Positions 12,599 through 63,665 are shown, counted from the first letter of the stretch. The stretch: 64,000 bases of DNA from Dehalococcoidia bacterium (GCA_965204335.1 OZ241982.1:2183462-2247461); one strand, 5' to 3'. The notes: generated from the letters alone by a model not told the origin. Translations and numbers: made by a program.

Positions 12599-12674
<76 letters not shown>

Positions 12675-38375: not shown

Positions 38376-38422
38376 CTCTCCCCCCGCGCCAGCGGGGGGA
38401 GATGCCGCAGGCAGAGGGGGGG
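38376..38422 (+). repeat. GC-rich double-hairpin extragenic repeat, copy 1 (CTCCCCCCGC-GCCA-GCGGGGGGAG AT GCCGCAGGC AGAGGGGGG)
   Basis: A 10-bp perfect stem, then a TGCC/GGCA mini-hairpin, then a G-tract; lies 32 nt after the cupin stop in a convergent gap. Confidence 0.85.
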
Positions 38423-38453
38423 CCAGCACATCTGACCGCCCTTCCAGAGCCCC

Positions 38454-39032
38454 CTATCCCCCCACCTGCCCGCTCCAGCGCCAATAGTGATCGAACGCCG
38501 CGATCGTCAACGCGTGCGTGATCAGTTTGTCGTTGACCAGCCCGGGAATCTCCGAGAGCGGCACGGTCGAGACCTCGATCGCCTCGCTCGAGGTGCCCAC
38601 CACGTGATCGTCATCGACGACGCGCGTCACATCCTGCGCCAGGAACGACCAGCATCGATTCTCCTGCAGCGCGGGGTTCGGATGCACCCAGCCCAGTTCG
38701 ATGGCGTCCGGCGAGTGATATCCGGACTCTTCGAACATCTCCCGCATCGCCGCTTCCTTGGCCGACTCGCCCGGGTCGACGATTCCCCCGGGAATCTCGA
38801 GCGTCAATTCACGCGTGCCGTGGCGGAACTGGTTGACGAACACCACCTCGCGTTCGGGCGTGATCGGCATGATGTTGACCCAGTCCGGAAACTCGAAGAT
38901 GAAAAACCGATGGTCGCGGCCCGAAGTCGGGTGACGCGAGATGTCCCTGCGCAACTTGAAGAACCTGAAGTCCTCGATGATCTCCGAACTCAGCCGCCGC
39001 CAATCGTCAATCTTGCCGTCGAGGATGCTCAT
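38454..39032 (-). CDS. NUDIX hydrolase
   Basis: Nudix box GGIVDPGESAKEAAMREMFEESG. Confidence 0.85.
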   Translation of the reverse strand: MSILDGKIDDWRRLSSEIIEDFRFFKLRRDISRHPTSGRDHRFFIFEFPDWVNIMPITPEREVVFVNQFRHGTRELTLEIPGGIVDPGESAKEAAMREMFEESGYHSPDAIELGWVHPNPALQENRCWSFLAQDVTRVVDDDHVVGTSSEAIEVSTVPLSEIPGLVNDKLITHALTIAAFDHYWRWSGQVGG

Positions 39033-39952
39033 GTTGCTGTGTTGATCACCCGGGCATAGGTCTCGATCTTCAAGAGAGAGTCGAGCCCCGCGTCCTGGAA
39101 CTGCACCTCAAGGTTATCCAGCAACGTCGCCTTGTAGGCATCCACGTCAATACCCAGCGCCGCCACATCCCCTTTGATCCGGCGAAGGCCGAGCGCCACC
39201 GCACCGGCCAGCAGCAACTGGCTCTGCCAGATGTAGAACCGTCCCGTGTTGGGCAGCCGATCGATCAGTTGCGGCAGAATCGTGTGCAGGAAGTTGACGT
39301 GCCGCACCTCATCGCGCAGGATCAGGCGGAAAATCTGCTTGGCCAGGGGGTCGACATCGTCGAGCTCCAGCGCTTGCTGCAGGAACAGTGCGGCGAAATT
39401 CTCGCTGAACAGCGTTGACGTGAGCCAGTTCTCGACCCGGTAGAAGCCCCACGAGGCCATCCCGCCGAAGCGCTCGATCAGGAACGCTTCCGGCTTCGAG
39501 ATGAAGCCGTGGCCATTCACCTCGGTCAGATAGCGGTCCAGCACATACACGTGCCGCGCTTCGTCCTGGCACTGGGCGGCAAGGTAGAGGTTCAACGCCG
39601 GATCGCGGACCTGGTGGGTGGCCTGGCTCATCATCACCTGGATCGTGTCCAGGCCCATCACCTCGAGCCCGTGAAACACGTTCATCATCCGCAACCAGGG
39701 CCCGCGTTTCGACTCGGGTATGACCGAGCCCGCCGACCAGTCCACGTCGCGGTCCGCGTTCCAGAGACGATCGCTCTGCTGGCGGAAGAGCGTCCGGAAC
39801 GCGTCCGCCTGCTCCGCACTTCGATGAGGTCGGACGGCGTTTGGAGATCGCTTCATCTCGGCCGAGCCCCTTGCCTCCGCATATGCCCGATCATACCCAC
39901 CGCCCCTCGCCATCGTTCTCGTCATCGAACGCAGGCTGATCGTATACTGCAC
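39029..39952 (-). CDS. ferritin-like diiron-carboxylate protein (AurF/R2-like oxygenase family, putative)
   Basis: Two E...ExxH sites (QDEARHVYV; DEVRHVNFL); start codon uncertain. Confidence 0.55.
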   Translation of the reverse strand: MQYTISLRSMTRTMARGGGYDRAYAEARGSAEMKRSPNAVRPHRSAEQADAFRTLFRQQSDRLWNADRDVDWSAGSVIPESKRGPWLRMMNVFHGLEVMGLDTIQVMMSQATHQVRDPALNLYLAAQCQDEARHVYVLDRYLTEVNGHGFISKPEAFLIERFGGMASWGFYRVENWLTSTLFSENFAALFLQQALELDDVDPLAKQIFRLILRDEVRHVNFLHTILPQLIDRLPNTGRFYIWQSQLLLAGAVALGLRRIKGDVAALGIDVDAYKATLLDNLEVQFQDAGLDSLLKIETYARVINTAT

Positions 39953-39954
39953 GC

Positions 39955-40386
39955 ATGGCTGATGAGGGATTCGACCTGGAAGAGACGCTGCGCGCGCTGC
40001 GCGAGGCCGACGTGGTGGTCATTGGCTTCGGCTGGTTGCAGGAACGATTGCTGATCGATGGTCGCCGAAACGACTCCGAAGGACCCTACATCCGCGTCGT
40101 CGAGCCCGTCCGCTCGCCCCAGGATCGAATCCGCGAACTGAGAAAACTCCGACCCAGCTTCGACGACCCGGAGTCGTTCGTCTTCTTCCCCTGGGCCGGC
40201 CGCGTCGACTCATTCGTCGAGGCCGAGCTGTTTGAGCGCATCCTCGAGCGCTGCGCCGGTGATCCGACCGCTGAAGACGACGCGCGCGCCGCGCTCGGGC
40301 GTCTGTACGAGCTTGACCGCGAAGACATCAGGCAGGCGATCTCCGGCGGCGACAAGTACCACACCCTCTACGAGCGCACCTCCTGA
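39955..40386 (+). CDS. hypothetical protein
   Basis: 143-aa coding-like ORF divergent from the diiron gene. Confidence 0.45.
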   Translation: MADEGFDLEETLRALREADVVVIGFGWLQERLLIDGRRNDSEGPYIRVVEPVRSPQDRIRELRKLRPSFDDPESFVFFPWAGRVDSFVEAELFERILERCAGDPTAEDDARAALGRLYELDREDIRQAISGGDKYHTLYERTS

Positions 40387-40476
40387 CCCTCCGTTCGACC
40401 TCCGCGTCCTCCCGGCCCTCGTTATGTCACAATTGGCAAGTGTGTCCTGTTTGTCATAGGCTGCTCGCACCTATGT

Positions 40477-40722
40477 ATGCCCTTGGACAAGGCGGAAAAC
40501 GTGGCCGAGCGTAGAATCAAGGCTCGCAGCCAGGCTGCGACCGTCAACCAGCCGGTAGCCAGCTTGTCGGCTGAGCCCCAGGAATGCTCCCACTCCTGGG
40601 AGATCGACCGGCCCAAACAGCAGGTCTCGCACGGCCGCTGCTCCAAGTGCGGCGCAGAAAAAGACTTCCTCAACTACGGCGAAGAGCTGCGAATGCCGTT
40701 CGGCCGCCGCCGCCGTTCCTGA
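40477..40722 (+). CDS. small Cys/His-containing hypothetical protein
   Basis: 81 aa (CSHSW...HGRCSKCG); no SD; weak evidence. Confidence 0.3.
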   Translation: MPLDKAENVAERRIKARSQAATVNQPVASLSAEPQECSHSWEIDRPKQQVSHGRCSKCGAEKDFLNYGEELRMPFGRRRRS

Positions 40723-40746
40723 ACTTCTTCGCTCTCCCTACCAAAT

Positions 40747-40796
40747 TCTCTCCCCACGCCGTCCGGGGAGATGTCCCGTAGGGACAGAGGGGGGCG
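40747..40796 (+). repeat. GC-rich double-hairpin extragenic repeat, copy 2 (divergent variant)
   Basis: CTCTCCCCACGCCGTCCGGGGAG AT GTCCCGTAGGGAC AGAGGGGGG; hairpin 2 uses GTCCC/GGGAC instead of TGCC/GGCA, a compensatory change. Confidence 0.8.
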
Positions 40797-40800
40797 CCCC

Positions 40801-41826
40801 CTACGGCGCCGGCGCCGTCACTTCCACTCGCACCGCGATGATCCGCTCCCTGCCATAGAAGGCAATCTGCTCGAAAGCCGCCGGACTGAGCTGAAGATCC
40901 GTATTGGACGACTCGGACCCTCGAACGACCACCATCGCTACTGACCCCACCACCTGGTCCTGCTCTTCGTCGCTCAGCACCGTGGCGCCGGGCAGCCGCG
41001 TCAATCTCAACGTCGTGCCCACCGGCCAACGCGACGTGAACACGGTGGCCGGCTCGCTGGGATCGTAGTCCGCGCCGTCGGCGAGCGAGCGTGGAATTCC
41101 GGCCGGTACCGGCTCCGCCGTCGCCCGCTCGGCCACGATTTCCGCGCCTCCGACCTGCGCAGGGGTGACCTGTTGGTCCGAAACCGTCGGCTCGATCGAT
41201 GAGATGGCCACGGTGCTCGGCTGAGCCTGAGTTGCGTCCTCTGCCGGAGTCGCGGATTCCGTGGAGTCTGCCCCGTCCGGGGCTGCGCCGTCGCCTTCGG
41301 ATTGCTGTTGTTCCTCGGCAGCCACTGCGGTTGACTGTTCGGCAGCGCTCGAATCCTCGGCCTGAGCTTCTCCGGCGGCAGGGGTTGGCGCGGAGCCCTC
41401 ACCCGACCCATCATCCTCGACCGCCTCCACGGTCTCTTCAACGTCGGCCGCCGGCGCATCGTCCTCTTCGATCAACAGGGTGACGCCGAAGTACACCCCA
41501 ACCCCGATGCCCCCCACGATCGCAAGCGTCAGCAACGCGCCGATCGTCCGCCGGAATCTGGGGCCCAACGGGGGCCGCTCGTTCGGCAGGCGCAGGCGCT
41601 GGTTGCTGTATTGCCTGAATTCGTTGGCGCCTCGAACCCGGATCTGCGGACTGGAGAAGTCGCGGGCTCCACGCGGCTCCATTGAGTGACGACTCATACA
41701 GGCAGAGTATGACATCACCCGGAGTCCGCGGTAACGGCGAATCGCCGTCCGGCCGGGTCGCGCCGACAGGTCGGTAGGATGGAGACATGGCCGACAACAT
41801 GGCGACCAGGCACATTCGCTGCCCAA
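40801..41826 (-). CDS. membrane-anchored RlpA-like (double-psi beta-barrel) protein with an acidic low-complexity linker
   Basis: Single TM (TIGALLTLAIVGGIGVGVYFGVTLLI), an Asp/Glu/Ala/Ser-rich linker, and a C-terminal RlpA/expansin-like pattern (FTSRWPVGTTLRLTRL...VVVRGSESSNTDLQLSPAAFEQIA); start codon uncertain. Confidence 0.5.
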   Translation of the reverse strand: MGSECAWSPCCRPCLHPTDLSARPGRTAIRRYRGLRVMSYSACMSRHSMEPRGARDFSSPQIRVRGANEFRQYSNQRLRLPNERPPLGPRFRRTIGALLTLAIVGGIGVGVYFGVTLLIEEDDAPAADVEETVEAVEDDGSGEGSAPTPAAGEAQAEDSSAAEQSTAVAAEEQQQSEGDGAAPDGADSTESATPAEDATQAQPSTVAISSIEPTVSDQQVTPAQVGGAEIVAERATAEPVPAGIPRSLADGADYDPSEPATVFTSRWPVGTTLRLTRLPGATVLSDEEQDQVVGSVAMVVVRGSESSNTDLQLSPAAFEQIAFYGRERIIAVRVEVTAPAP

Positions 41827-42161
41827 ACTGTTCCCGGAAGCTGGACGTCGGGATTCCCCCCGAGACCGGGCGTACGCGCAGAGTCGTCACACGCTGCGCC
41901 GACTGCAATCACGACCTGGTCGTCTCGCGCGGACAGAAGGAAGACGAGCCGCTGCGGATCAGGGCTTGCATGCGCTGGGACGTGACCTGTCCGTACTGCA
42001 AGCAACCGACGGTCGCGCGAGTCCCGCCCAAGGGCGTGCTCCGGCGCAAGGAAACGGCTCCCTGCCGACACTGTCGCAAACCGCTCATCGTCGAGCGCCG
42101 CGAAGAGGGTCAACTTGTCCTCCGCGCCCACCGGGGCATCCTCGAAGGAACGCTGCTATAG
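41787..42161 (+). CDS. double zinc-ribbon protein (4 CxxC pairs)
   Basis: CPNC...CADC...CPYC...CRHC. Confidence 0.55.
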   Translation: MADNMATRHIRCPNCSRKLDVGIPPETGRTRRVVTRCADCNHDLVVSRGQKEDEPLRIRACMRWDVTCPYCKQPTVARVPPKGVLRRKETAPCRHCRKPLIVERREEGQLVLRAHRGILEGTLL

Positions 42162-42334
42162 GACGCGCGCCGCAGCCGTTTATCCGCAATTGATGTAACC
42201 GCTGCTACGGAAGCGGGTCTGCTGGTCATCATCGCGCCGACGGCTAGTGACCAACCCGCCTCCCCCGACTAAAGTGCAGGAATACCAATTCCCGGCCCCG
42301 GTCTCCGCCTGAGGGCCTCAGAAAGAGCGGGAAA

Positions 42335-43492
42335 ATGAGCGACTACGACCAGCGCGCCATCGAGATGCATCGTGAATGGGGCGGCAAGGTCGACTACGCG
42401 TCGAAGGTCACCGTCGAAAACCACGACGACCTGTCTGTTGTCTACACACCCGGCGTCGCGGCCCCCTGTCTCGAGATTGCGCGCGACCCCGCGCTCGCCC
42501 GGGTGATGACCGGCGTTGGCAATCTGGTCGCGGTGATCACCGACGGCTCCGCCGTGCTCGGACTTGGCGATATCGGTCCGCAGGCTGCACTGCCGGTGAT
42601 GGAAGGCAAGTGCGTCCTCTTCCGCAACTTCGCCGGCGTCGACGCGATTCCCATCGCGCTGGCCGTCCGCGAGGTCGACGACATCGTCGCCTCGATCGAG
42701 GCGATCGCCCCCTCGCTGGGCGGGATCAACCTGGAGGACATCTCCGCGCCGCGCTGCTTCGAAATCGAGCAACGCTTGCACGACTCGCTCGATATCCCGG
42801 TCATGCACGACGATCAGCACGGCACGGCCGTGGTGGCGCTCGCCGGTGTGATCAACGCACTGCGCCTCACCAATCGCGACTTCAAGGACATTCGCACGGT
42901 CATCCTCGGAGCCGGCGCCAGCGGCATCGCCTGCGGCGCCATTCTGCGCGAGATGGGCTGCGAGGACATCGCACTGATCGACTCCAAGGGCCTGCTGACC
43001 ACCGACCGCGAAGACCTCAACCCCTGGAAACGCGTCGCGGCCCAGTGGTGCGAGCATCGCAACAATCCCGACGGCAGCATTCCGCAGACCTCACAGGTGA
43101 TGCGCGGCACCGACCTCTTCCTCGGCCTCGCCGGTCCGGGACTCGTGACCGTCTCCGACGTCGCCTCCATGAACGACGACTCGATGGTTTTCGCCATGGC
43201 CAATCCCACCCCGGAAATCATGCCCGATGAGGCAGCCGAAGCGGGCGCCGCCATCGTGGCGACCGGCCGCTCGGATTTCCCGAATCAGATCAACAACGCG
43301 CTCGGGTTCCCGGGCATGTTCCGCGGTCTGCTCGATGGCGGCATCCCCAAGATCGAGGATGAGCACAAGATTGCCGCGGCCCAGGCCATCGCCGACTTCG
43401 TCGAAGAGCCGACGCCCGACCGCATCGTGCCGAGCATCTTCGAGGAAGGCCTCGCCTACAAGGTCGCCGACGCCGTCCAGGCCGCCGGCTAG
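42335..43492 (+). CDS. NAD(P)-dependent malic enzyme (small bacterial/archaeal type)
   Basis: 385 aa; malic enzyme motifs VVYTPGVA, VITDGSAVLGLGDIG, GAGASGIA. Confidence 0.9.
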   Translation: MSDYDQRAIEMHREWGGKVDYASKVTVENHDDLSVVYTPGVAAPCLEIARDPALARVMTGVGNLVAVITDGSAVLGLGDIGPQAALPVMEGKCVLFRNFAGVDAIPIALAVREVDDIVASIEAIAPSLGGINLEDISAPRCFEIEQRLHDSLDIPVMHDDQHGTAVVALAGVINALRLTNRDFKDIRTVILGAGASGIACGAILREMGCEDIALIDSKGLLTTDREDLNPWKRVAAQWCEHRNNPDGSIPQTSQVMRGTDLFLGLAGPGLVTVSDVASMNDDSMVFAMANPTPEIMPDEAAEAGAAIVATGRSDFPNQINNALGFPGMFRGLLDGGIPKIEDEHKIAAAQAIADFVEEPTPDRIVPSIFEEGLAYKVADAVQAAG

Positions 43493-43506
43493 CTCCCCGA
43501 TTCTCC

Positions 43507-43551
43507 CTCTCCCCCCGCTTTGCGGGGGGAGATGCCGAAGGCAGAGGGGGG
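43507..43551 (+). repeat. GC-rich double-hairpin extragenic repeat, copy 3
   Basis: CTCTCCCCCCGC-TTT-GCGGGGGGAG AT GCCGAAGGC AGAGGGGGG, 15 nt after the malic-enzyme stop. Confidence 0.85.
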
Positions 43552-43615
43552 CTTCCACCACAGGACGGAAGCTGTCCTACGCTCAAGCCTGCTCCGGGAG
43601 AGAGCCAATCTTCCT

Positions 43616-43636
43616 CCCTCTCCCTTAGGGAGAGGG
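43616..43636. terminator. 9-bp perfect hairpin (CCCTCTCCC-TTA-GGGAGAGGG) in a convergent gap
   Basis: Read directly; an additional AGGAC...GTCCT hairpin lies at 43562..43579; no U-tract. Confidence 0.35.
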
Positions 43637-43652
43637 CTGGGGTGAGGGTCGC

Positions 43653-44567
43653 TCAAGCAGACGGCTTGGGATGCCCGTACACATCCAACGCCTGCGCCAG
43701 GGCCGCCCTCGCGCCCAGCAGCGGCGCATACCCCAGCGTCACGCGCGCCCTGGAGTCGTCAATCAAATGGGGCCGACCCGTCACTGAGGTGTACGCGTCG
43801 ACGTCCTCCGGCTCCGGCAACACCCATCCGGACAGACGCATCGCGTCCAGCCCGCGGGCGAAGAGGTACGGGGCATTCCAGAACCGCGCCTCCACGCCTC
43901 GCAGCTGGCACGCCTCCAGCGCAAGTTCCCGCCAGGTCGTATGCGCCGACGCGACGTGAAACACCTGGTCGACCGACTCCTCCGTCTGGCTCAGCATCGC
44001 CCACACGGCGCGTCCCAGGTCGGCGGCTGCGAGAATCGATACCGGCGCCTCGCCGCCCGCGACCAACGCCGCGCGTGGGCGAGAGATGAAGTGTCGAATC
44101 ACGTTCATCACGGTGCCGCCGCCGTCACTGATCAGCGGCGCCGGTCTCAGGATCGCGAGCGGAACGCGTCTGCGGTACGTGCGCGCCACGCGCTCGGCCG
44201 CAACCCGGCTCTGGAGCGCCGGACCAATCGGCCGGGGGACCCAGCTCTCGGTCACGGGCCACGGAGGAAGCCGCCGACCGTAGGTCTCGGTCGTCGAGAC
44301 GAAGACCACCTGCTCCAGTGTCTGCTGACGGCATGCGTCAAGCAGGGACGTCGTGGCGTGGACATTGGCCTCCGTGTAGGCAGAACCAGAGTGCCCCCGA
44401 TCGGTCAATGACGACGCGTGAACGACGTGAGTCGCCTCGGCGACCACCCCTTGCAGCCCATCTTCTGCGTCGATGTCGAGCATGATCAAATCGAGATCAT
44501 GCCGCTGCAACTCGCTCGCAATCGCCGAGCCGACCGGTTGATCGTATCCGGTCAGTGCGACTCGCAT
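43653..44567 (-). CDS. NAD-dependent epimerase/dehydratase family protein
   Basis: Rossmann N-terminus MRVALTGY...; SDR-extended fold features. Confidence 0.75.
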   Translation of the reverse strand: MRVALTGYDQPVGSAIASELQRHDLDLIMLDIDAEDGLQGVVAEATHVVHASSLTDRGHSGSAYTEANVHATTSLLDACRQQTLEQVVFVSTTETYGRRLPPWPVTESWVPRPIGPALQSRVAAERVARTYRRRVPLAILRPAPLISDGGGTVMNVIRHFISRPRAALVAGGEAPVSILAAADLGRAVWAMLSQTEESVDQVFHVASAHTTWRELALEACQLRGVEARFWNAPYLFARGLDAMRLSGWVLPEPEDVDAYTSVTGRPHLIDDSRARVTLGYAPLLGARAALAQALDVYGHPKPSA

Positions 44568-44658
44568 GGTTGACATAGCCCGATTCCTTGGTCGGAACAG
44601 CCGCTGCTAGCATCGCCGTTGCACAAAGAGCGTACGTCCTGGGATCAGGGGGAGTCGG

Positions 44659-46826: not shown

Positions 46827-46899
46827 CCTGTGTGCCTAACCTCAACAGATCGCACCCATTCCGCCATCAACATTGTACACATAACCATTTGACCATTTT

Positions 46900-46937
46900 T
46901 TTCACACTCTCCACAGAAGGTGCACGTTTCTGTGAAA
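46900..46937. promoter_or_regulatory. AT-rich promoter island with a 7-bp inverted repeat TTTCACA-N24-TGTGAAA upstream of the minus-strand gene 45438..46826
   Basis: Locally low GC (46860..46950) in an otherwise GC-rich window; perfect inverted-repeat half-sites. Confidence 0.35.
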
Positions 46938-46963
46938 TTCGCGGATAGCTGCGACTTCAGGCG

Positions 46964-47320
46964 CTAGGGCGCCTCACCTCTTCGCTCCTCGACCGCAATC
47001 TTGAGATTGCGCAGCCCCTGATCCGCAGCGGCCTCGATCGGCCGGATTCCGCGCCCAAAGAGGAACACATTGCTGAGCCGCCAGCGCCAGCCGAGCGGCC
47101 GGATTCGATCGCTGATGACGCAACCATCGCCGCGCCGCTCGATCTGATAGGCGTGCTGAACTCGAAATCCGATGCCCATCTTGACCTCGATCAGCAGCTC
47201 CCGCCCGCTCGATTCCGACAGCACCGTCGCCTGTCCCTCGTCCACGCCCAGTTGGGCTTCGGCTCGCAACAGCTCCCAGACGCGATGTGGCGAAGCGAAG
47301 ATTTCGACCGGTTCAAGCAT
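46964..47320 (-). CDS. SRPBCC (START/polyketide-cyclase-like) family protein
   Basis: 118 aa; weak fold-level resemblance. Confidence 0.5.
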   Translation of the reverse strand: MLEPVEIFASPHRVWELLRAEAQLGVDEGQATVLSESSGRELLIEVKMGIGFRVQHAYQIERRGDGCVISDRIRPLGWRWRLSNVFLFGRGIRPIEAAADQGLRNLKIAVEERRGEAP

Positions 47321-48894: not shown

Positions 48895-48900
48895 GGCTGC

Positions 48901-51194: not shown

Positions 51195-51209
51195 CCGAAC
51201 CCCAGGCGA

Positions 51210-55598: not shown

Positions 55599-55607
55599 GG
55601 AATCAGC

Positions 55608-56993: not shown

Positions 56994-56996
56994 CCC

Positions 56997-58430
56997 GTGG
57001 TCTCCGCCGGCGCAGCCGCCAACGGCGACTTCCATCTCGTCGTGCTCGGCGCCGGACCGGGCGGCTATCCCGCCGCCTTCCACGCCGCCGAACGCGGACT
57101 CGATGTCACCTTGATCGATACCCGTCCACAGCCCGGAGGCATCTGCCTCTATGAGGGCTGCATTCCCTCAAAGGCGCTGCTGCACGTGGCCAAGCTGTTG
57201 CGTGAGGCTCGCCACGCCTCGGAGTGGGGCATCAACTTCGCCGAGCCGACCATCGACGTTGACGCCTTGCGCGAATGGAAGGACGGCGTCGTCCGCAAGA
57301 TGACCAACGGACTGGGCCTGCTCCGGCGTCAACACAACGTGCGCTATCAGCAGGGCTTCGGGCGCATCCGCGATGCCAACCAGCTCAATGTCGAGTCCAA
57401 CGGCGAGGTCATACCGGTCGACTTCGACGCTCTGATCGTCGCGACGGGATCAACGCCGGTCGTGCCCCGCTCACTGCAGATCGAGTCCGAACGCGTCATG
57501 GACTCAACCGACGCGTTGAATCTCACCGACGTGCCCGGCTCCCTGCTGGTGATCGGCGGCGGATACATCGGCCTCGAGCTGGGAACCGTGTACGCCGAGC
57601 TCGGGTCGGAAGTGACCGTGGTCGAGGCATTGCCGCAGATTCTCACCGGCGTTGAGCGCGACCTGGTGCGTGTGCTGGAGCGAAGCCTGCGCACTCGGCT
57701 CAAGGACACCCGGGTCGACACCTCGGTGGTCTCGCTCACGGAAGTCGAGGACGGCGTTGAAGCGGTCATCGCCGACAAGGAGGGCGTCGAGAGCACCGAG
57801 CGCTTCGACCGCGTCCTGATCGCGACCGGCCGCCGGCCCAACAGCGCCGGCCTCGGCCTGCATCGCACGCAGGCGCATGTCGATTCGCACGGATTCATCG
57901 TCACCGATCAACAACGTCGGACCGCAGAATCATCAATCTTTGCGATCGGCGATGTCGCCGGCGAACCGATGTTGGCGCACAAGGCGACGGCCGAGGCGTC
58001 GGTGGCGGTAGAGGCGATCATCGGCGAACCGTCGGCGTTCCGCCCGCTCGCCGTCCCGGCGGTAATCTTCACCGATCCGGAGATCGCCTGGTGCGGGCTC
58101 ACCCAGGCCGAGGCCACAGGATTGGATATCGAAGCGACGACCGTCAGCTTTCCCTGGGCCGCGTTGGGCCGAGCTTCAGCCTCGGGCCGCAACGACGGCC
58201 TGACCCGCCTGGTGATTGAGCGCGGATCCGAGCGTGTGCTGGGCATGCAGGTCGTCGGACCGGGCGCCGGCGAGCTGATCGGCGAGGGCGTGCTGGCCGT
58301 CGAGCTGGGCGCGCGCGCGGCGGACCTGGCCGAGTCGATCCACGCCCATCCCACCCTCAACGAGTCGATCATGGAGGCCGCCCAGGTCTTCTTCGGCCGC
58401 AGCCCTCACTACCTCACCCGGCGTCGTTGA
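56997..58430 (+). CDS. lpdA: dihydrolipoyl dehydrogenase (E3)
   Basis: GAGPGGY...GGICLYEGCIPSK redox-active disulfide; HAHPTLNE. Confidence 0.9.
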   Translation: MVSAGAAANGDFHLVVLGAGPGGYPAAFHAAERGLDVTLIDTRPQPGGICLYEGCIPSKALLHVAKLLREARHASEWGINFAEPTIDVDALREWKDGVVRKMTNGLGLLRRQHNVRYQQGFGRIRDANQLNVESNGEVIPVDFDALIVATGSTPVVPRSLQIESERVMDSTDALNLTDVPGSLLVIGGGYIGLELGTVYAELGSEVTVVEALPQILTGVERDLVRVLERSLRTRLKDTRVDTSVVSLTEVEDGVEAVIADKEGVESTERFDRVLIATGRRPNSAGLGLHRTQAHVDSHGFIVTDQQRRTAESSIFAIGDVAGEPMLAHKATAEASVAVEAIIGEPSAFRPLAVPAVIFTDPEIAWCGLTQAEATGLDIEATTVSFPWAALGRASASGRNDGLTRLVIERGSERVLGMQVVGPGAGELIGEGVLAVELGARAADLAESIHAHPTLNESIMEAAQVFFGRSPHYLTRRR

Positions 58431-58440
58431 GGCTGCCGCG

Positions 58441-59319
58441 ATGCTGATTGAGCTGGGCGGGCAGACGCTCGACGCCACCGACCGCTGCCATGTCATGGGC
58501 ATCCTCAACGTCGCCACCGACTCCCCGGTGGCCGATTCCATTGTCGCCGTCGGTGACGCGCCTCGGCGGGCAGCCGAGTTGCGGGACGCCGGCGCGTCGA
58601 TCATCGACGTTGGCGCTCAATCGACTCGTACCGGCGCGGCGGAGATCTCGCCGGACGAGGAAATTGCGCGTGTCGCGCCGGTGGTTGAATCACTGATCGC
58701 GGAGGGACATCTGATCTCCGTCGACACCTGGACCGCTTCGGTCGCCCGGGCCGCCGTCGCGGCCGGCGCACATCTGATCAACGACATCACCGGCGCCGAC
58801 CCGGACACGGTGCAGGTCGCCGTCGAGACCAACACGCCGATCGCCGTAATGCACATGCGCGGTCGCCCGCAGCGCCACCGCGAGGCGACCCACCAATACG
58901 ATGATGTCAGCCTCGAGGTGCGCGACTATCTCGGCAGCCGGGCACGCCAGATCAAGGCCGCCGGCGCGCCGGAGGTCTGGCTCGATCCCGGCTTCCAGTT
59001 CGGACGTGGACTCGAAGACAATCTGCGCCTGCTCCTGGATTTGCCCAACCTCGCCAGGCTCGGACATCCGGTCCTGATCTCGGCGTCGCGCAAGGGATTC
59101 CTGGCCGAGATGCTGGGTCACGGAGAGCTGCGCTCCCACGATGCCCAGGACAAACCGGGCATGCTGGAGGCGACGGTCGCCTTCAACGCGCTGGCGGCCT
59201 GGATGGGCGCGCACGTCGTCCGCGTCCACGACGTTCAGGAGGTTGCCTGGGCGCTCAACGTCTCGGCAGCCGCACGAGCAGTACGCCGAGCCCAGGGCGC
59301 GGTAGACTCGATCCGATGA
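58441..59319 (+). CDS. folP: dihydropteroate synthase
   Basis: VMGILNVATDSP ... DVGAQSTRTG ... pterin-binding barrel. Confidence 0.85.
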   Translation: MLIELGGQTLDATDRCHVMGILNVATDSPVADSIVAVGDAPRRAAELRDAGASIIDVGAQSTRTGAAEISPDEEIARVAPVVESLIAEGHLISVDTWTASVARAAVAAGAHLINDITGADPDTVQVAVETNTPIAVMHMRGRPQRHREATHQYDDVSLEVRDYLGSRARQIKAAGAPEVWLDPGFQFGRGLEDNLRLLLDLPNLARLGHPVLISASRKGFLAEMLGHGELRSHDAQDKPGMLEATVAFNALAAWMGAHVVRVHDVQEVAWALNVSAAARAVRRAQGAVDSIR

Positions 59320-59343
59320 TCCTGCGCACAAGGAGGTGACGCC

Positions 59344-59544
59344 ATGCCGGTCTATACCTATCACTGCGAAGAGTGCAGCGAGAGTTTCGAGAAAATCCGC
59401 CCGATGTCGCGCGCCTCGGAACCCCACCCCTGTCCGAGCTGCGAGGCGGAGGCGGAGCGAGTGGTCTCCGGCATCTTCGAGAACAACTCGACCAAGAACC
59501 GCTCCGCCAACTTCCCCAAGCGCAAGCGCTACACCAACTGGTAA
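59344..59544 (+). CDS. FmdB-family zinc-ribbon protein
   Basis: MPVYTYHCEECSESFE...CPSCEAEAERVVS. Confidence 0.75.
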   Translation: MPVYTYHCEECSESFEKIRPMSRASEPHPCPSCEAEAERVVSGIFENNSTKNRSANFPKRKRYTNW

Positions 59545-59582
59545 CCGTCAAGCAGCAGACGCGCCACTGTCCGGAGAGCCGC

Positions 59583-60698
59583 ATGAGCCAGCGCCCGCCC
59601 GACCCGATTCCGTTCCCACGCGACCGAATCCAACGCGGAGATCGGCGGAGTGCGCCGCCGCCTCCGCAGCAGCAACAACAGCCATCGGGGCCGGTCATCT
59701 ATTCGGCCTCGGGCCAACCGATGCGCCGAGTCCAGCAGCAACCGGCGGCGCCTCCGCCGACGGAGCCCGTGCCGCTTCGACGACCGCCGCCTCCGGCGCA
59801 ACCCGCCGAATCAACGGACGCGTCCGAGCCTCAGGAGCCGCAGGGACTGCACGGCCACGTCGCCGCCGTGATCGACTCGACCGACGCGACCTTTACTCGG
59901 GATGTGATCGAACGCTCGCACGAGTTGCCGGTCATCGTCGACTGTTGGGCGCCGTGGTGCGGACCCTGCCGCATTCTGGGACCAATCCTCGAGAAGCTCG
60001 CCTACGAGCGCGACGGACAGGTGCAACTCGTCAAGGTCAATACGGACGAGAATCCGCAGGTCGCCCAGGCGCTCCAGGTTGAAGGCATTCCGGCCGTCTT
60101 CGCATTCGTCGGCGGACAGCTCGTGAACAAGTTCGTCGGGGCCATCCCGGAGGAACAGGTTCGATCGTTCTACGACTCGCTTGTTCCCTCGGAGGCCGAC
60201 ATCAAGGCGGCCGAGGGCTACCGGATGATGCAGGAGAACCAGATCCCCATCGCCCGACTCCACTTTGAGTCGGCGTTGGAGGAGGACCCCAACCACGAAC
60301 CGGCCGGTGTTGGGCTCGCCGCGATCCTGGTGCGCATGGGAGAGAACGACCGCGCGAAGGAGCTGGCCGGCCGATGGCCCAACCATCCGATGAGCAAGAG
60401 CGTGCTGACCTCGATGGAGCTCACGGCTGCGCTCGAGGGCTACGAGGCCGACGAGATTCGCCGCGCCGCCGGCGCGCATCCCGACGACGCCATGGCGAGA
60501 TATCGCCACGGGTGTCTGCTGGCGGTCGAGAGCCAGTGGATGGAAGCGCTCGACGAAATGCTGGAGTCGGTCAGAATCGACAAAACCGCCGGCGACGAAG
60601 CAGCCCGCAAGACCTTACTCGGCATCTTCGGAATGCTCGGAGACGACCAGCCCGTCGTGGTCGAATATCGCAAGCGCCTCGGCCGCCTGCTCTTCTGA
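59583..60698 (+). CDS. thioredoxin-domain protein with a C-terminal TPR-like region (YbbN/CnoX-like)
   Basis: WCGPC active site followed by a helical repeat domain; preceded by a Pro/Gln-rich region; ATG 59583, and the upstream part of track ORF 59373.. is run-on. Confidence 0.8.
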   Translation: MSQRPPDPIPFPRDRIQRGDRRSAPPPPQQQQQPSGPVIYSASGQPMRRVQQQPAAPPPTEPVPLRRPPPPAQPAESTDASEPQEPQGLHGHVAAVIDSTDATFTRDVIERSHELPVIVDCWAPWCGPCRILGPILEKLAYERDGQVQLVKVNTDENPQVAQALQVEGIPAVFAFVGGQLVNKFVGAIPEEQVRSFYDSLVPSEADIKAAEGYRMMQENQIPIARLHFESALEEDPNHEPAGVGLAAILVRMGENDRAKELAGRWPNHPMSKSVLTSMELTAALEGYEADEIRRAAGAHPDDAMARYRHGCLLAVESQWMEALDEMLESVRIDKTAGDEAARKTLLGIFGMLGDDQPVVVEYRKRLGRLLF

Positions 60699-60702
60699 TC
60701 CG

Positions 60703-60747
60703 CTCTCCCCCCGCGCAGCGGGGGGAGATGCCGCAGGCAGAGGGGGG
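60703..60747 (+). repeat. GC-rich double-hairpin extragenic repeat, copy 4
   Basis: CTCTCCCCCCGC-GCA-GCGGGGGGAG AT GCCGCAGGC AGAGGGGGG, 5 nt after the stop of the thioredoxin-TPR gene. Confidence 0.85.
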
Positions 60748-60825
60748 CGCTCCCGATGCGCAGTGACGCTGATACCGAAGGATGCAGGCCTTCCGATGGC
60801 CTCGGCACGTTCGTAGGCCCCGGCC

Positions 60826-61158
60826 CTACGCCTCGTCCTCTTCCGATCCCCGCGTGTACCACTCGCGAGTCCGCCACCAGGGCATCGGGGTTTCGTCGTC
60901 GATCGGCTTGGCCCGGTTACGAATCGCCCAGATGAACACCACCAGCGTCGCGCCGACGAAGCAGAAGGGGATGAAGAGCGAGGTCGCGAGCGTTTCGTCG
61001 GAGACGTGAATCGATTCCTCTTCGTCTCCGCCCGCTTCGGCGATCTGCAAGGGCTCATGGTCAACGGCGTGCTCGGCTGCCGCCGCCGCACCCAGCGTCA
61101 GCGCACTCAACCCGGCGACCACCGCCAGGACGAGCAGGAATCGTCGAAGCTGCGCCAT
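60826..61158 (-). CDS. small secreted/membrane protein (signal peptide plus C-terminal TM)
   Basis: ATG 61158 preceded by GAGGGG at a suitable spacing; MAQLRRFLLVLAVVAGLSALTLGAAAAAEHAVDHEP...FIPFCFVGATLVVFIWAIRN; lies in an otherwise intergenic stretch and is divergent from 61261; the remainder of track ORF 60826..62163 is antisense run-on. Confidence 0.4.
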   Translation of the reverse strand: MAQLRRFLLVLAVVAGLSALTLGAAAAAEHAVDHEPLQIAEAGGDEEESIHVSDETLATSLFIPFCFVGATLVVFIWAIRNRAKPIDDETPMPWWRTREWYTRGSEEDEA

Positions 61159-61260
61159 TGGATCACACCCCTCAACCGTTCCGACTATCGTAACTCGCCC
61201 TAGTGTCGCGCCAACCGCTGGCATGGTCAATCTCGGCCGGGCCAACGCTAGACTACGGAC

Positions 61261-62940
61261 ATGCACCCACCGACCAAATTCTCCCTGCTTGACGCCGAAG
61301 GGCGGGAACAGCAGTTCCCGCCGGACGGACCCGTGCTGCTGGCGCTCGTCAAGGAGGACTGCGACACCTGCAACCTGACCCTCCCTCTGCTCGAAGCCGT
61401 CCATCGAGACACCGCAGAAGGACTGGACGTCTGGGTCGCCGTCCAGAAGACGGACGACATCCCCGTCCTCAAGCAACGTCACGACCTGACGATGCCCTTG
61501 CTCGACGACGACGCGCTCGATCTCTCCTACGAGACCGACATCGACACGGTTCCGACGCTCTTCCTCTACGACGCGGAGCAGAACTGCACACTGCAAACCT
61601 TCGGCTTCGACAAGCACGAGTGGCGCGAGATCGCGGGCGAGTCGATGACCCTGGCCGGGCGTCCCGGCGTCGAGACCTCGATTGACTGGGAGTCGCTGCC
61701 CGAGCAGCGGCCCGGCTGCGGCGCCCGCAACTACGAGCCGGGCGTCTACGAGCGCCTGCAGGCGCTCAAGAGCGGGGATCTGCTCTCGCGACTGGTCGAC
61801 CTCGCCTCGAGCGACGACATCCACGAGTTCATGTACGACCAGGGCTACACCGACGGCTTCCCGGTCGTGCCGCCGACTCGCGAGCGCGTCTGGAAGATGC
61901 TCCAGGGCACGACCCGGGATCCGCAGGAAGAAGTGGCGATCGTGCCGCCCAACCTGGCGCCGATCACCGTCGAGAAGGTCGCGATCAACGCCGTCATGGC
62001 AGGCGCGAAACCCGAGTATCTGCCCGCGATCATCGCCCTCGTCGAGACCGCCTGCACCGAGACCTTCAACATCCACGGCGTCCTCGCAACCACGATGGGC
62101 GCGACGCCGGTTGGCATCTTCAACGGACCGATCCGCGACCGGATCGGCATGAACTACCTCCACGGAGCGCTCGGCTCAGGCAATCGAGCCAACGCGGCAA
62201 TCGGGCGAGCCCTCCGGCTCTGCGCCCGCAACGTCGGCGGCAGCTTGCCCGGCGGCACCGACCGCGCCACGCAGGGCGGCCCGCATCGATTGACCATGAA
62301 CTTCGCCGAGAACGAGGACGCCAGCCCCTGGGAGTCCCTCGCCGTCGAGTACGGCTTCGAGCCGACCGACGACGTCGCCACGCTGATGGCGATGTCCGGC
62401 GGACCGGCCACGATCGCCGACGAACGCTCCCGCGACGGCAGAGGCATGGCCGGCACGCTGGCGATGTCCATGAGCTGCATGCAGGATCCCAAGTCACCCA
62501 TGGTCGACACCCTGGTCGTACTCTCGCCCGATCACGCCGGCATCTTCGGCCGCTCCGGCTGGTCCAAAGACGATGTGCGCGAGTGCATCATGGAGGAGAC
62601 GGCCATCCCGCTGAAGTACCGTCTCCGCTCGGACGACGCCGGCTGCGGTCTGCCACCGTCCGTCGTGGAGCGGTTCGGCGGCGAAGCCGCGCTCGACCTG
62701 CCGGTGCCCAAGTTCCGCGATAAGTCCAACATCATCCTCGTCGTCGCCGGCTCCCCCGCCGCCAAGTTCTCCACCATCCTCGGCGGCTGGGCCGGGGGAG
62801 TCTATTCCACGCCGACCAGCGCCAGGATCGGATCAGGCGGCGCAGAGGAGATCCGCGGCGCCCGAGACGCCGACATGGACAAGCGCGACTCCGGCGGTCG
62901 CGATCTCGGTGCGTTCGAGCCAAACGTCCGCCGGACTTGA
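61261..62940 (+). CDS. uncharacterised protein: N-terminal thioredoxin-fold (TlpA/redoxin-like, CDTC) domain fused to a ~400-aa conserved domain of unknown function
   Basis: 559 aa; LLALVKEDCDTCNLTLPLLE thioredoxin-fold CxxC; the C-terminal domain (HEFMYDQGYTDGFPVVPPTRERV...LAPITVEKVAINAVMAGAKPEY) is paralogous to the ORF starting at 63697. Confidence 0.7.
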   Translation: MHPPTKFSLLDAEGREQQFPPDGPVLLALVKEDCDTCNLTLPLLEAVHRDTAEGLDVWVAVQKTDDIPVLKQRHDLTMPLLDDDALDLSYETDIDTVPTLFLYDAEQNCTLQTFGFDKHEWREIAGESMTLAGRPGVETSIDWESLPEQRPGCGARNYEPGVYERLQALKSGDLLSRLVDLASSDDIHEFMYDQGYTDGFPVVPPTRERVWKMLQGTTRDPQEEVAIVPPNLAPITVEKVAINAVMAGAKPEYLPAIIALVETACTETFNIHGVLATTMGATPVGIFNGPIRDRIGMNYLHGALGSGNRANAAIGRALRLCARNVGGSLPGGTDRATQGGPHRLTMNFAENEDASPWESLAVEYGFEPTDDVATLMAMSGGPATIADERSRDGRGMAGTLAMSMSCMQDPKSPMVDTLVVLSPDHAGIFGRSGWSKDDVRECIMEETAIPLKYRLRSDDAGCGLPPSVVERFGGEAALDLPVPKFRDKSNIILVVAGSPAAKFSTILGGWAGGVYSTPTSARIGSGGAEEIRGARDADMDKRDSGGRDLGAFEPNVRRT

Positions 62941-63028
62941 GTCGGGATCAGGGGATGTGGAAGAGTAGACTGCGTTAGACACACGGCGCGCCGCAACCCT
63001 GCAGACGGCGCGTTGATGGAGAGGTCCA

Positions 63029-63559
63029 ATGGTTACCCAGATCCTTGACCCAACCGACGAACGAGTGCCGATCAAGCGGCAGCTCACGCCGCGCCCCGAG
63101 GCGCTGCATGGGACGATCGCCCTGCTCGACATCTCCAAGCCGCGCGGCGACGTCTTCCTCGACCGACTCGAGGAGCTCCTGCATGAGCGCGCGCCGGGAG
63201 TCGAAACCAGGCGATTCATGAAGCCGACCGTCGCCAAGCCGGCACCGCAACCGATCAAAGATGCGATCCTGGAGGAGTGCGACTTCGTCATCGAAGCGCT
63301 CGCTGATTGAGGATCCTGCACGACGTGCAGTGTGCACGACACCGTTTTCTTCGAACTGCAGGGCAAGCCCAGCGTCTTCGTCGCCACCTCTGAGTTCATC
63401 AAGGCCGCCAGCCACCAGGCCGAACGCCTCGGACTCGAAGAGGTGCGCCGAGTCTTCATCCCGCATCCGATGCAGGACCGCACGGACGCCGAGATGCACG
63501 AACACGCCGAACGCTTCGTCGACGAAATCCTCGACACCTTGATGGCCCCCGTCGAGTAG
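63029..63559 (+). CDS. candidate selenoprotein with a U-G-S-C motif (in-frame TGA 63308..63310 read as Sec); the ORF track splits it into 63029..63310 and 63332..63559
   Basis: Both fragments share one frame with a single TGA between them; readthrough gives ...DFVIEALAD-U-GSCTTCSVHDTVFFELQGKPSVF...; SD GGAGAGG before ATG 63029 and none before GTG 63332; stem-loop immediately 3' of the TGA. Confidence 0.6.
63311..63345 (+). promoter_or_regulatory. SECIS-like stem-loop immediately downstream of the in-frame UGA
   Basis: CUGCAC-GAC-GUGCAG (63316..63330), with alternative GUGCA-GUG-UGCAC pairing extending to 63337; starts 5 nt after the UGA. Confidence 0.45.
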
Positions 63560-63570
63560 TCCACCGGTCC

Positions 63571-63601
63571 CCTCACCCTCGCACTTGATGCAGGGGTGAG
63601 G
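63571..63601 (+). terminator. hairpin CCTCACCC-N15-GGGTGAGG after the selenoprotein-candidate stop
   Basis: 8-bp GC-rich stem 12 nt after the stop; no clear U-tract. Confidence 0.35.
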
Positions 63602-63620
63602 CCCTCCGGTCCCACTTCCC

Positions 63621-63665
63621 CCCTCCCCCCGCTCCGCGGGGGGAGATGCCGAAGGCAGAGGGGGG
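63621..63665 (+). repeat. GC-rich double-hairpin extragenic repeat, copy 5
   Basis: CTCCCCCCGC-TCC-GCGGGGGGAG AT GCCGAAGGC AGAGGGGGG. Confidence 0.85.

Follow-up and report, generated by a model that had tools for sequence, protein, structure and literature searches.

The five short hairpin repeats that lie between genes in this stretch of Dehalococcoidia DNA raise the question of what kind of element they represent, and whether their conserved structure belongs to RNA or to DNA. The initial annotation of the 64,000-nt stretch analysed here (the window) had described five copies, all on the plus strand. We recovered the same five copies on that strand by sequence inspection and pattern searches and refined their extents. 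Dinucleotide-preserving shuffles gave an expectation of zero pattern matches, and a search of the entire window with a covariance model, run without filters, returned only the five full copies at 40–46 bits. The next-best matches scored below 14 bits and corresponded mainly to the palindromic hairpin on the opposite strand.

Copy 1 (38377–38421, plus strand, as are all copies below) consists of the arm U1 (TCTCCCCCC, 38377–38385), loop 1 (38386–38393), the arm U2 (GGGGGGAGA, 38394–38402), a single T (38403), a mini-hairpin GCC-GCA-GGC (38404–38412) and the tail U3 (AGAGGGGGG, 38413–38421). Copy 2 (40749–40794) is a divergent type B, in which U1 (TCTCCCC, 40749–40755) and U2 (GGGGAGA, 40765–40771) enclose a 9-nt loop and are followed by T 40772, the mini-hairpin GTCCC-GTA-GGGAC (40773–40785) and U3 (AGAGGGGGG, 40786–40794). 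Copy 3 (43508–43551) comprises U1 (43508–43516), U2 (43524–43532), T 43533, the mini-hairpin GCC-GAA-GGC (43534–43542) and U3 (43543–43551). The same order is found in copy 4 (60704–60747; U1 60704–60712, U2 60720–60728, T 60729, GCC-GCA-GGC 60730–60738, U3 60739–60747) and in copy 5 (63622–63665), where U1 (CCTCCCCCC, 63622–63630) carries one mismatch at the stem base and is followed by U2 (63638–63646), T 63647, GCC-GAA-GGC (63648–63656) and U3 (63657–63665).

The feature that decides how these repeats are to be read was absent from the initial annotation: read backwards, the purine arm GGGGGGAGA of hairpin 1 gives the 3′ tail AGAGGGGGG, its mirror image. All five copies thus present a pyrimidine arm, a purine arm and a mirrored purine arm in this order on one strand. 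It is the order of a class II purine-motif intrastrand triplex of the BoxC/PIT/TMECO kind, for which the PIT and ITxF definition of potential triplex elements places a pyrimidine-rich domain 5′, a purine-rich domain next and the reverse-Hoogsteen domain 3′ (PMC4666352). The mirror comprises 9/9 triads in copies 1, 3 and 4 and also reads 9/9 in copy 5; copy 2, with a 7-nt duplex arm and a 9-nt tail, has 7/7 triads and two unpaired G. With the code G.G-C plus A/T.A-T and at most one mismatch, the mirror is thus present in the window copies. Pairing of the 5′ flank with the tail in a closing stem was also considered and rejected, since CCCCTCT occurs upstream of copy 1 only and is not common to the other copies.

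We re-determined the stems that this architecture rests on. Hairpin 1 had been annotated with 10 bp in four copies and 6 bp in copy 2; we find 11 bp in copies 1, 3 and 4, where for copy 1 the GC/GC ends of loop 1 lengthen the stem to this value, 10 bp in copy 5 and 7 bp in copy 2. A class II element is defined by stems of at least 6–8 nt, and those of the window span 9–11 bp in copies 1 and 3–5 and 7 bp in copy 2. The compensatory change noticed earlier in hairpin 2 is real and general across 37 aligned copies: one pair is C-G in 22 and U-A in 15, with none broken, and a second is A-U in 6, C-G in 6 and G-C in 4. The observed covariation score was equalled in 0 of 500 shuffles, and both hairpins covary. 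Predicted DNA folding energies for four copies range from −16 to −18 kcal/mol with z-scores of −2.3 to −3.9, calculated in ViennaRNA, whose model does not include base triples. The earlier description of the repeats as a family that is interspersed, extragenic and changed in ways that preserve structure is supported.

Covariation also bears on the idea that the repeats are sequence-specific sites for a protein that binds duplex DNA and needs no fold. Conservation of the three 9-nt arms is indeed very strong, even between phyla, as would suit such a site. The compensatory changes in both stems, a loop 2 that can be exchanged between 2–3 nt and hairpins with 3- to 7-bp stems, and sister families that have different sequences and follow the same mirror logic all speak against it, and we consider it very improbable.

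Loop 2, which connects the purine arm to the mirrored tail, provides a second line of evidence on the nature of the fold. Its length is bimodal at hairpin-1-anchored sites in GC-rich metagenome contigs, at either 2–3 nt or 10–14 nt; it measures 10 nt in type A and 14 nt in type B and is itself a hairpin in both. Loop 2 hairpins have stems of 3–7 bp, with loop 2 overall at 10–19 nt, and kin with identical arms and a loop 2 of only 2–3 nt exist. The hairpin loop reads C-GNA-G in 64 of 67 Chloroflexota-type copies, whereas an alignment of 93 mixed copies, mostly from Rhizobiales (alignment A1), contains C-GGCA-G in 48 and C-GNA-G in 35. Both are mini-hairpin motifs of DNA, GCGNAGC and GCGNNAGC, described by Hirao and co-workers (PMC13037366): in Chloroflexota a C-G pair closes hairpin 2 around a GNA triloop, in alignment A1 around either a GGCA tetraloop or a GNA triloop, and the sequence CCGAAGG is the very mini-hairpin found in the ssiA priming signal of plasmids (PMC13037366). 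Unlike the known mini-hairpins, those of the repeats are embedded in a larger fold, as the turn between purine arm and third strand. Such mini-hairpins are far more stable as DNA, with a melting temperature of 76.5 °C for the DNA fragments GCGAAAGC/GCGAAGC compared to 39 °C for r(GCGAAAGC) (PMC13037366). Two sequence-level arguments favour a DNA over an RNA fold: (i) the purine-motif code with T.A-T and T/CG and (ii) the C-GNA-G loops.

The closest known systems are the BoxC/PIT/TMECO elements that E. coli and further Proteobacteria carry, intrastrand triplex repeats with the class II purine motif (Hoyne et al. 2000, cited in Holder et al. 2015, PMC4666352). Both share (i) the succession of pyrimidine arm, loop, purine arm, loop and mirrored purine arm, (ii) 9-nt arms that are G/C-rich with few A, (iii) a strictly intergenic location in many near-identical copies whose loops vary more than their stems, and (iv) inverted pairs that join different subtypes, which in E. 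coli is always the case, and differences in presence between close strains. The window even contains a true TMECO-consensus copy, a sixth element from a different family at 43616–43648 on the plus strand (CCCTCTCCC-tta-GGGAGAGGG-ctg-GGGTGAGGG) that matches the published BoxC/TMECO consensus (PMC4666352) and has a short loop 2 and one T.A-T triad. It is the only element to fit CCCTCNCCC N3-6 GGGNGAGGG N3 GGGNGAGGG, unlike the five copies. The window family differs in its arms (TCTCCCCCC / GGGGGGAGA / AGAGGGGGG versus CCCTCNCCC / GGGNGAGGG / GGGNGAGGG), in its loop 2, which is a T followed by a covarying mini-hairpin of 9–13 nt (10–14 nt in total) instead of 3 nt, and in its hosts, namely Chloroflexota, Rhizobiales and, as single copies, Myxococcota, Firmicutes and Spirochaetota. 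The triplex was measured for TMECO, and the window family is best read as a hairpin-looped variant of the known BoxC/PIT-type intrastrand triplex repeats. Published definitions call for short loops, and its loop 2 is longer than the 1–6 nt of ITxF and lies at or beyond the limit of the 0–10 nt of Hoyne et al. An ITxF search would miss the family because loop 2 exceeds the allowed 1–6 nt, and published searches (ITxF with loops up to 6 nt, Hoyne et al. up to 10 nt) in general miss variants with a structured mini-hairpin loop.

A G-quadruplex, or a switch between G-quadruplex and hairpin, could in principle arise from the G runs in purine arm and tail. Two G6 runs are spaced by 17–21 nt, and for the BoxC motif of E. 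coli a switch between G4, hairpin and duplex has been proposed in a preprint. With only two long G tracts, the canonical arrangement of four tracts of at least G3 with loops of 1–7 nt is lacking, and the mirror-like co-variation at the AGA/TGA/GGA positions is not required for a G-quadruplex. The 18 imino signals in the NMR spectrum of TMECO are consistent with a triplex and not with a G-quadruplex (PMC4666352), and we assign this possibility only a marginal chance.

We examined whether the mirrored tail extends beyond the window. At GC-rich metagenome sites anchored on hairpin 1 only, a tail with at most one mismatch within 25 nt was present in 27 of 32 cases, compared to 675 of 14200 shuffles (4.8%). 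Third arms were mirrored in 88 instances and direct in 27, corresponding to 45 and 23 distinct types, in a count that leaves out pattern-selected copies. Divergent Chloroflexota copies retain the mirror as GGGGGAGG / GGAGGGGG and GGGGGAAGC / TGAAGGGGG; it is likewise retained in GGGGGAGC / TGAGGGGG, where a T faces a C-G inversion, the usual natural choice in antiparallel triplexes. Sister families follow identical mirror logic with other sequences, and many of them contain T.A-T triads, which by rule only the purine motif permits (PMC4666352). Independent mirror-preserving changes within the family of the window element are few, from about four subfamilies, and the mirror is broken in several degenerate copies.

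We consider it fairly probable, on these grounds, that the copies are short interspersed intergenic DNA repeats whose shape is that of a G-rich single-strand fold of the class II intrastrand triplex type with a structured loop 2. In such a fold, the pyrimidine arm TCTCCCCCC would pair with the purine arm GGGGGGAGA in a hairpin of 9–11 bp, the C-GNA-G DNA mini-hairpin would provide a tight turn, and AGAGGGGGG would return as third strand in the major groove, antiparallel to the purine arm, with G.G-C and A.A-T triads. The fold may form transiently on DNA that becomes single-stranded during replication, repair or transfer. For TMECO, of the same class, the triplex was proven by CD and NMR, and DMS footprinting in vivo showed no stable triplex, with duplex formation in competition (PMC4666352). 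At the level of the host, one would expect polymerases to be hindered and the DNA to be unstable locally, both of which are reported for TMECO. Among the forms of non-B DNA in bacteria, intrastrand triplex repeats have received little study and have no established function; the present family extends the range of the class to Chloroflexota and Rhizobiales.

The genomic context of the copies, derived from crude frame-specific GC3-based gene calls, bears on a possible role in RNA. The stop codon of a cupin-like plus-strand gene precedes copy 1 by 32 nt, and that of a NUDIX gene on the minus strand follows it after 33 nt. Copy 2 sits between convergent genes, with the stop of the minus-strand gene 40801–41826 at a distance of 7 nt, and copy 3 lies 15 nt past the malic-enzyme stop in a gap of 160 nt. 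Copy 4 begins 5 nt past the stop of a thioredoxin-TPR gene on the plus strand, with the next well-supported gene (61261–62940) also on the plus strand, and copy 5 lies about 37 nt upstream of a plus-strand ORF that extends beyond the window end. Convergent gaps therefore hold three of the five copies (1–3) and not four as first annotated, copies 4 and 5 being placed between co-directional plus-strand genes. The claimed distance of 5–62 nt past a plus-strand stop holds for 5–32 nt; the 62 nt of copy 5 depends on a doubtful ORF of 75 amino acids. GC skew is negative at 36–64 kb and was judged too weak to assign the replication strand.

Taken within the window, this arrangement could suggest an RNA element of 3′-UTRs, with hairpins at mRNA ends acting as a terminator that lacks a U tract or as a barrier to 3′ exonucleases, similar to E. 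coli REP. All five copies are in sense orientation behind a plus-strand stop, and their hairpins are very stable with covarying stems. The single orientation proved to be a local accident. We analysed the context of 67 copies on related contigs and found 16 sense and 13 antisense copies in co-directional gaps and six copies in divergent (promoter) gaps; well-supported antisense solo copies are located at L049:4865, L072:5131 and L031:1179. Family-wide, there is no orientation bias relative to genes, and a fixed sense orientation or terminator-like role was dropped after this analysis. The RNA model further leaves the mirrored tail without a role, RNA reportedly does not form triplexes of the purine motif (PMC4666352), and C-GNA-G loops are much weaker in RNA (PMC13037366). 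A terminator scan returned nothing at the copies, where a G run and not a T tract follows the hairpins, in line with the initial view that they are not classical terminators, and PIT elements had no terminator activity in E. coli (PMC4666352). We therefore regard the 3′-UTR reading as unlikely, and labels such as terminator or 3′-UTR motif as unsuited to these elements. That the repeats are not a CRISPR array also stands.

Comparison with close relatives adds a kinetic aspect to this argument. We located syntenic relatives via malic-enzyme homologues, and copies 1–3 are all absent from relatives in which the malic enzyme is 97% identical (the 97%-identical assemblies include ERZ18545484 and ERZ23495064), which again disfavours an RNA function in the 3′-UTR. 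The copy 1 site is empty in L170 and holds a BoxC-type motif in L171; copy 2 is absent from the orthologous gap in both. Copy 3 shares its gap with the sixth element, and this gap is missing in close relatives: because the convergent genes overlap by 4 nt at this site in L164–L167, L170 and L171, the whole 160 nt are absent there. L171, in turn, has a copy of its own at a site vacant in the window. No clean alignment of filled with empty sites was obtained, and neither insertion boundaries nor a target-site duplication, which with terminal inverted repeats around a unit of under 300 bp would mark a MITE, were seen in them. The pattern is best read as gain and loss of short intergenic elements between near-identical genomes, and such fast turnover at 97% protein identity offers a natural system to study how the element spreads. 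Because copies turn over quickly and yet every copy keeps the fold, selection may act mainly on the propagation or persistence of the element itself and not on a service to neighbouring genes.

Fast turnover would also suit a REP or REPIN mobilised by a RAYT (Y1/HUH) transposase, with the hairpins as ssDNA substrate and the mirrored tail in a guide-like role. Like REP/BIME and REPINs of Enterobacteria and Pseudomonas, the repeats are short, GC-rich, strain-polymorphic extragenic palindromes that often follow stop codons and occur in convergent gaps; the present family is depleted in divergent ones. Inverted pairs are frequent in both, here 41–46 bp apart in Chloroflexota and about 100–125 bp in Rhizobiales, and in Dialister two copies are contained in a palindromic unit of 270 bp that has terminal inverted repeats of 14 bp. 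A REP or REPIN would carry a conserved 5′ tetranucleotide head with an imperfect palindrome, come in identical inverted pairs and have a cognate RAYT gene with copies on its flanks. A conserved GTAG-like head is absent here, and the pairs are nearly always heterotypic (A+B, as in E. coli) and not identical inverted copies. No transposase, and hence no RAYT gene, was seen among the scanned neighbours of the inspected copies, and no connection of TMECO with mobile elements emerged in the study of Holder et al. (PMC4666352). REPs also lack the third, mirrored arm and the spread across phyla. We consider mobilisation by a RAYT improbable; it is compatible with the triplex fold and not an alternative to it. 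The label of a REP/BIME-like element of this lineage, as initially preferred, is too narrow and names the wrong family, given the class II triplex architecture and the occurrence in Rhizobiales and other phyla.

The element is not confined to the window and occurs well beyond it: we found it in Chloroflexota metagenome-assembled genomes, with complete Dehalococcoidia chromosomes such as OZ242948, OZ253504 and OZ247431 among the carriers, as singletons in Myxococcota, Firmicutes and Spirochaetota, and abundantly on chromosomes and plasmids of Rhizobiales (Sinorhizobium, Rhizobium, Mesorhizobium and others). BLAST of a window copy against plasmids and phages gave no match, a result that is uninformative for so short and low-complexity a query. 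Rfam yielded zero hits at the window copies at the gathering score and only noise up to E = 10, and nothing relevant at the Rhizobiales, Firmicutes and Spirochaete loci. A literature search with the literal arm sequences of the family returned only unrelated eukaryotic and viral matches. Because sister families reach the same fold with other sequences, the near-identity of a 45-nt sequence in five taxa exceeds structural need, and for this reason we also considered a horizontally spreading element whose ssDNA fold would be the substrate of a widespread enzyme, for example a structure-specific HUH-type nuclease or a primase acting as on ssi signals. This proposal is speculative and, in our estimate, rather unlikely; if true, a DNA triple helix would be what a natural pathway of mobilisation or priming recognises. 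The Rhizobiales version, with BLAST matches in 157 plasmid records, resembles the Rhizobium-specific intergenic mosaic elements (RIME) and the Sm-repeats of Sinorhizobium as an abundant intergenic palindromic repeat of chromosomes and plasmids, and as a lead only, RIME1, RIME2 or the Sm-repeats are candidate matches for it.

The element is built of three 9-nt arms rather than of two hairpins and a tail, a mirror arrangement that the initial annotation had overlooked. The pyrimidine arm U1 (TCTCCCCCC) is paired with the purine arm U2 (GGGGGGAGA), and a third arm, U3 (AGAGGGGGG), located 3′ of a T and the mini-hairpin, mirrors U2 instead of complementing it. A homopurine arm that is Watson–Crick-paired and has its own mirror behind it is the hallmark of an antiparallel purine-motif triple helix (G·G–C, A·A–T). 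Judged by sequence, the design is that of a class II intrastrand triplex; the rival fold, a G-quadruplex, is unlikely. Elements of this class were named BoxC, then PIT elements (Hoyne et al. 2000) and then TMECO (Holder et al. 2015, PMC4666352). CD and NMR show that the isolated TMECO strand folds into a very stable triplex; the motif occurs exclusively between genes, has neither orientation bias nor promoter or terminator activity, and its presence differs among E. coli strains (PMC4666352).

We scanned the window with a purpose-written architecture scanner (arm threshold 9 nt), which recovered copies 1 (38377–38421), 3 (43508–43551), 4 (60704–60747) and 5 (63622–63665) on the + strand and none on the − strand; copy 2 (40749–40794, +) falls below the threshold. 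One additional match, CCCTCTCCC-tta-GGGAGAGGG-ctg-GGGTGAGGG at 43616–43648 (+), fits the TMECO consensus exactly. This sixth element shares the convergent gap of copy 3, 64 nt 3′ of it; close relatives lack the entire gap. Reading of the sites and a search for the shared core, for which no match is expected in shuffled sequence, upheld all five + strand copies of the initial annotation. A covariance model built from related copies and run unfiltered across the whole window scored copies 1–5 at 40–46 bits, the remaining matches staying below 14 bits and consisting mainly of the palindromic hairpin on the opposite strand. The predicted DNA fold of four copies comprises an 11-bp or 10-bp hairpin and a 4-bp mini-hairpin (−16 to −18 kcal/mol; z-scores −2.3 to −3.9), and that of copy 2 a 7-bp first and a 6-bp second stem. 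By frame-specific GC3 gene calls and Pfam, only copies 1 (3′ of a cupin-like gene), 2 and 3 (3′ of the malic-enzyme gene) occupy convergent gaps, rather than four of the five as first proposed; copies 4 (3′ of a thioredoxin-TPR gene) and 5 lie between + genes. No Rfam match was obtained for the copies in the window, Rhizobiales and other loci searched.

Several further features of the window were recorded. Directly upstream of copy 5, a C-run/G-run hairpin (CCCCTCACCC...GGGGTGAGG, 63577–63610, +) resembles the first two arms of a BoxC-type motif, without a mirrored third arm downstream. The 60-nt flanks of the copies are strongly C-rich on the + strand (upstream C 131 versus G 67, downstream C 136 versus G 68; regions 38300–38500, 40680–40880, 43440–43640, 60640–60840 and 63560–63760), and the GC skew is negative from 36 kb on. 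The window also carries a large-type bacterial SRP RNA (18638–18902, +; 169 bits; genome 65% GC) and tRNA genes at 12217–12290 (−), 12599–12671 (+) and 12761–12842 (+). The large SRP RNA, together with the taxonomy of the element's carriers and the Chloroflexi-named malic-enzyme homologues, points to a probable Chloroflexota origin.

The mirror rule was assessed in three ways. (i) The covariance model has no term linking U2 and U3, and the divergent Chloroflexota copies that it found retain the mirror: GGGGGAGG with GGAGGGGG, GGGGGAAGC with TGAAGGGGG and, in three copies, GGGGGAGC with TGAGGGGG, in which T faces a C–G inversion, the natural choice in antiparallel triplexes. The mirror is broken in a few degenerate copies. 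(ii) In ~1 Mb of fetched DNA, cleared of every copy fitting the selection pattern, a purine 3′ hairpin arm preceded a mirrored arm 88 times (45 distinct types) and a direct copy 27 times (23 types). Many sister families are among the mirrored ones, for example GGGGAGAAG/GATGAGGGG and GGGGAGAGG/GGTGAGGGG with T opposite A, a triad permitted in the purine motif only (PMC4666352). (iii) In an unbiased metagenome scan specifying hairpin 1 alone, a mirrored arm (≤1 mismatch, within 25 nt) was present at 27 of 32 sites in GC-rich contigs, compared with 4.8% for shuffled flanks. Loop 2, between U2 and U3, measured 2–3 nt at 7 of the GC-rich sites and 10–14 nt at 17, two classes that mark the mini-hairpin as an optional structured second loop of a single design. 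Earlier searches were limited to loops of 1–6 nt (ITxF, PMC4666352) or 0–10 nt (Hoyne et al., as cited in PMC4666352), whereas loop 2 of the present family, at 10–14 nt, lies at or past these limits; our literature search found no description of the hairpin-looped family. AT-rich metagenome contigs (L122, L128, L130, L132, L160, L163) contain a lone hairpin 1, TCTCCCCCCGC...GCGGGGGGAGA, without a mirrored tail, which may be an unrelated terminator-like hairpin.

The compensatory stem changes described initially are borne out by covariation in 37 structure-aligned copies. In hairpin 2, one pair is C–G in 22 and U–A in 15 of the 37, with none broken; another alternates between A–U (6), C–G (6) and G–C (4), and a pair in hairpin 1 between U–A (30), G–C (5) and C–G (1). 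The covariation score exceeded 500 of 500 shuffles and every slid control. Hairpin 2 has a C-GNA-G loop in 64 of 67 Chloroflexota-type copies; a mixed alignment of 93 copies, mostly Rhizobiales, contains 48 with C-GGCA-G and 35 with C-GNA-G. These loops match the mini-hairpin DNA motifs GCGNAGC and GCGNNAGC, whose stability as DNA is exceptional (Tm 76.5 °C), against a melting temperature of just 39 °C for r(GCGAAAGC), the RNA form (PMC13037366). Mini-hairpin DNA binds SSB poorly and is present in single-strand priming signals (PMC13037366; also PMC3201870), CCGAAGG being the ssiA mini-hairpin (PMC13037366). RNA is reported not to form purine-motif triplexes (PMC4666352). The DNA-type loops and the reported lack of such triplexes in RNA thus provide two independent sequence arguments that the fold under selection is single-stranded DNA.

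We set 67 hairpin-loop copies from the window, Chloroflexota loci and GC-rich metagenome contigs against GC3-based gene calls. All lie between called genes, 20 in convergent and 6 in divergent gaps, and 16 sense and 13 antisense in co-directional gaps (12 versus 9 for unpaired copies). Clear antisense solo copies directly follow the 3′ ends of well-supported genes in loci L049, L072 and L031. The single orientation noted initially is therefore true of the window and does not extend to the family, and the near-even split together with the antisense solos identifies it as a small-sample effect. Inverted pairs number eleven and involve 21 copies; nine are tail-to-tail, with spacings of 40–46 bp in eight tail-to-tail pairs and of 18 and 28 bp in L031 and L126. 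Ten of the eleven combine a GCCGNAGGC copy with a GTCAC-NGA-GTGAC or GTCCC-GTA-GGGAC copy, a parallel to E. coli, where inverted TMECO pairs are always type A plus type B (PMC4666352). Tail-to-tail pairs of short (GCCGNAGGC) and long mini-hairpins occur in L022, L031, L048, L126, L127, L129, L140, L149 and L152, mostly with a constant 40–46 bp spacer, an arrangement that suggests a composite unit.

Turnover was followed at orthologous sites in relatives, fetched via a graded series of malic-enzyme homologues (those named Chloroflexi at ~71% identity). In assemblies with a 97% and 93% identical enzyme, gene order is conserved; a 4-nt overlap joins the malic-enzyme and epimerase genes, and the 160-nt gap holding copy 3 and the BoxC-type element is wholly absent. 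The site of copy 1 is an empty 17-nt gap in L170; in L171 (5990–6060) it is occupied by a BoxC-type motif, CCCTCTC-gccga-GGGAGAGGG-tta-GGGTGAGGG, so that different triplex-type repeats fill the same gene-end gap across strains. The site of copy 2 is empty in both. The covariance model found no copy in L167, L169 or L170, and one in L171 (9767–9820), in a gap that is copy-free in the window. At the three sites that allow a test, the nearest relatives thus lack the window copy in every case. More than the 45-nt core separates filled from empty sites, and their comparison revealed no target duplication. In an 89%-identity relative (L168, 3660–4200), the malic-enzyme/epimerase gap spans 540 nt and is taken up by a different repeat (cctgcgcaggaatgacgg...) in several copies and by a hairpin, CCTCCCCCC-tggga-GGGGGGAGG.

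An RNA 3′-UTR element or terminator, the former being the alternative initially raised, is weakened by the absence of orientation bias across the 67 copies, the empty orthologous sites in close relatives, the DNA-type loops and the missing T tract, which also agrees with the first judgement that these are not classical intrinsic terminators; it further leaves the mirror unexplained. The results support an interspersed repeat with fast turnover, in which a compact fold of single-stranded DNA is the conserved feature; this fold would consist of hairpin, mini-hairpin turn and third strand. Any one copy is expendable yet all keep the fold, and on the simplest reading it would help the element itself to be copied or to persist. 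Such a fold would not conflict with RAYT-type mobilisation, which is unsupported. At the host level, the fold may hinder replication or repair locally, an effect also proposed for TMECO (PMC4666352).

The element is not confined to the window. In a scan of one genome per species, at least 120 loci match the core pattern, in three groups; among the matches listed, 11 are Chloroflexota or Dehalococcoidia MAGs with the same element as the window, ~100 are Rhizobiales (Mesorhizobium, Rhizobium, Agrobacterium, Brucella, Aminobacter and others), and singletons come from a Myxococcales, an Oscillibacter, a Dialister and a Spirochaetota MAG, the latter two as GC-rich islands within AT-rich spacers. 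The Rhizobiales form is ATCTCCCCCC-TTGWG-GGGGGAGAT-G[stem-GGCA-stem]C-AGAGGGGGG, with frequent inverted pairs. Across 742 kb of loci from outside the Chloroflexota, the covariance model picked up 235 copies, nearly all in Rhizobiales, and on plasmids the Rhizobiales version occurs at 860 places in 157 records, including conjugative ones, always outside annotated genes. Across phyla the sequence is more nearly identical than the fold by itself requires, a hint of horizontal spread or of a common factor that recognises the element. The Dialister copy (L076, 3600–3880, −) lies in a ~270 bp palindromic unit in an AT-rich spacer with 14-bp terminal inverted repeats (ATACCAATGATAGG), which holds one canonical copy and an opposite-strand copy, TCTCCCCC-tcc-GGGGGAGA-atcaaa-AGAGGGGG, whose arms measure 8 nt and whose loop 2 is 6 nt long and unstructured; the arrangement is MITE-like. 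In the Spirochaetota MAG (L086, 5748–5800, −), the element ends 3 nt ahead of the ATG of a DUF1499 gene encoding a lipoprotein-like signal peptide, so that its G-rich tail would double as the ribosome-binding region.
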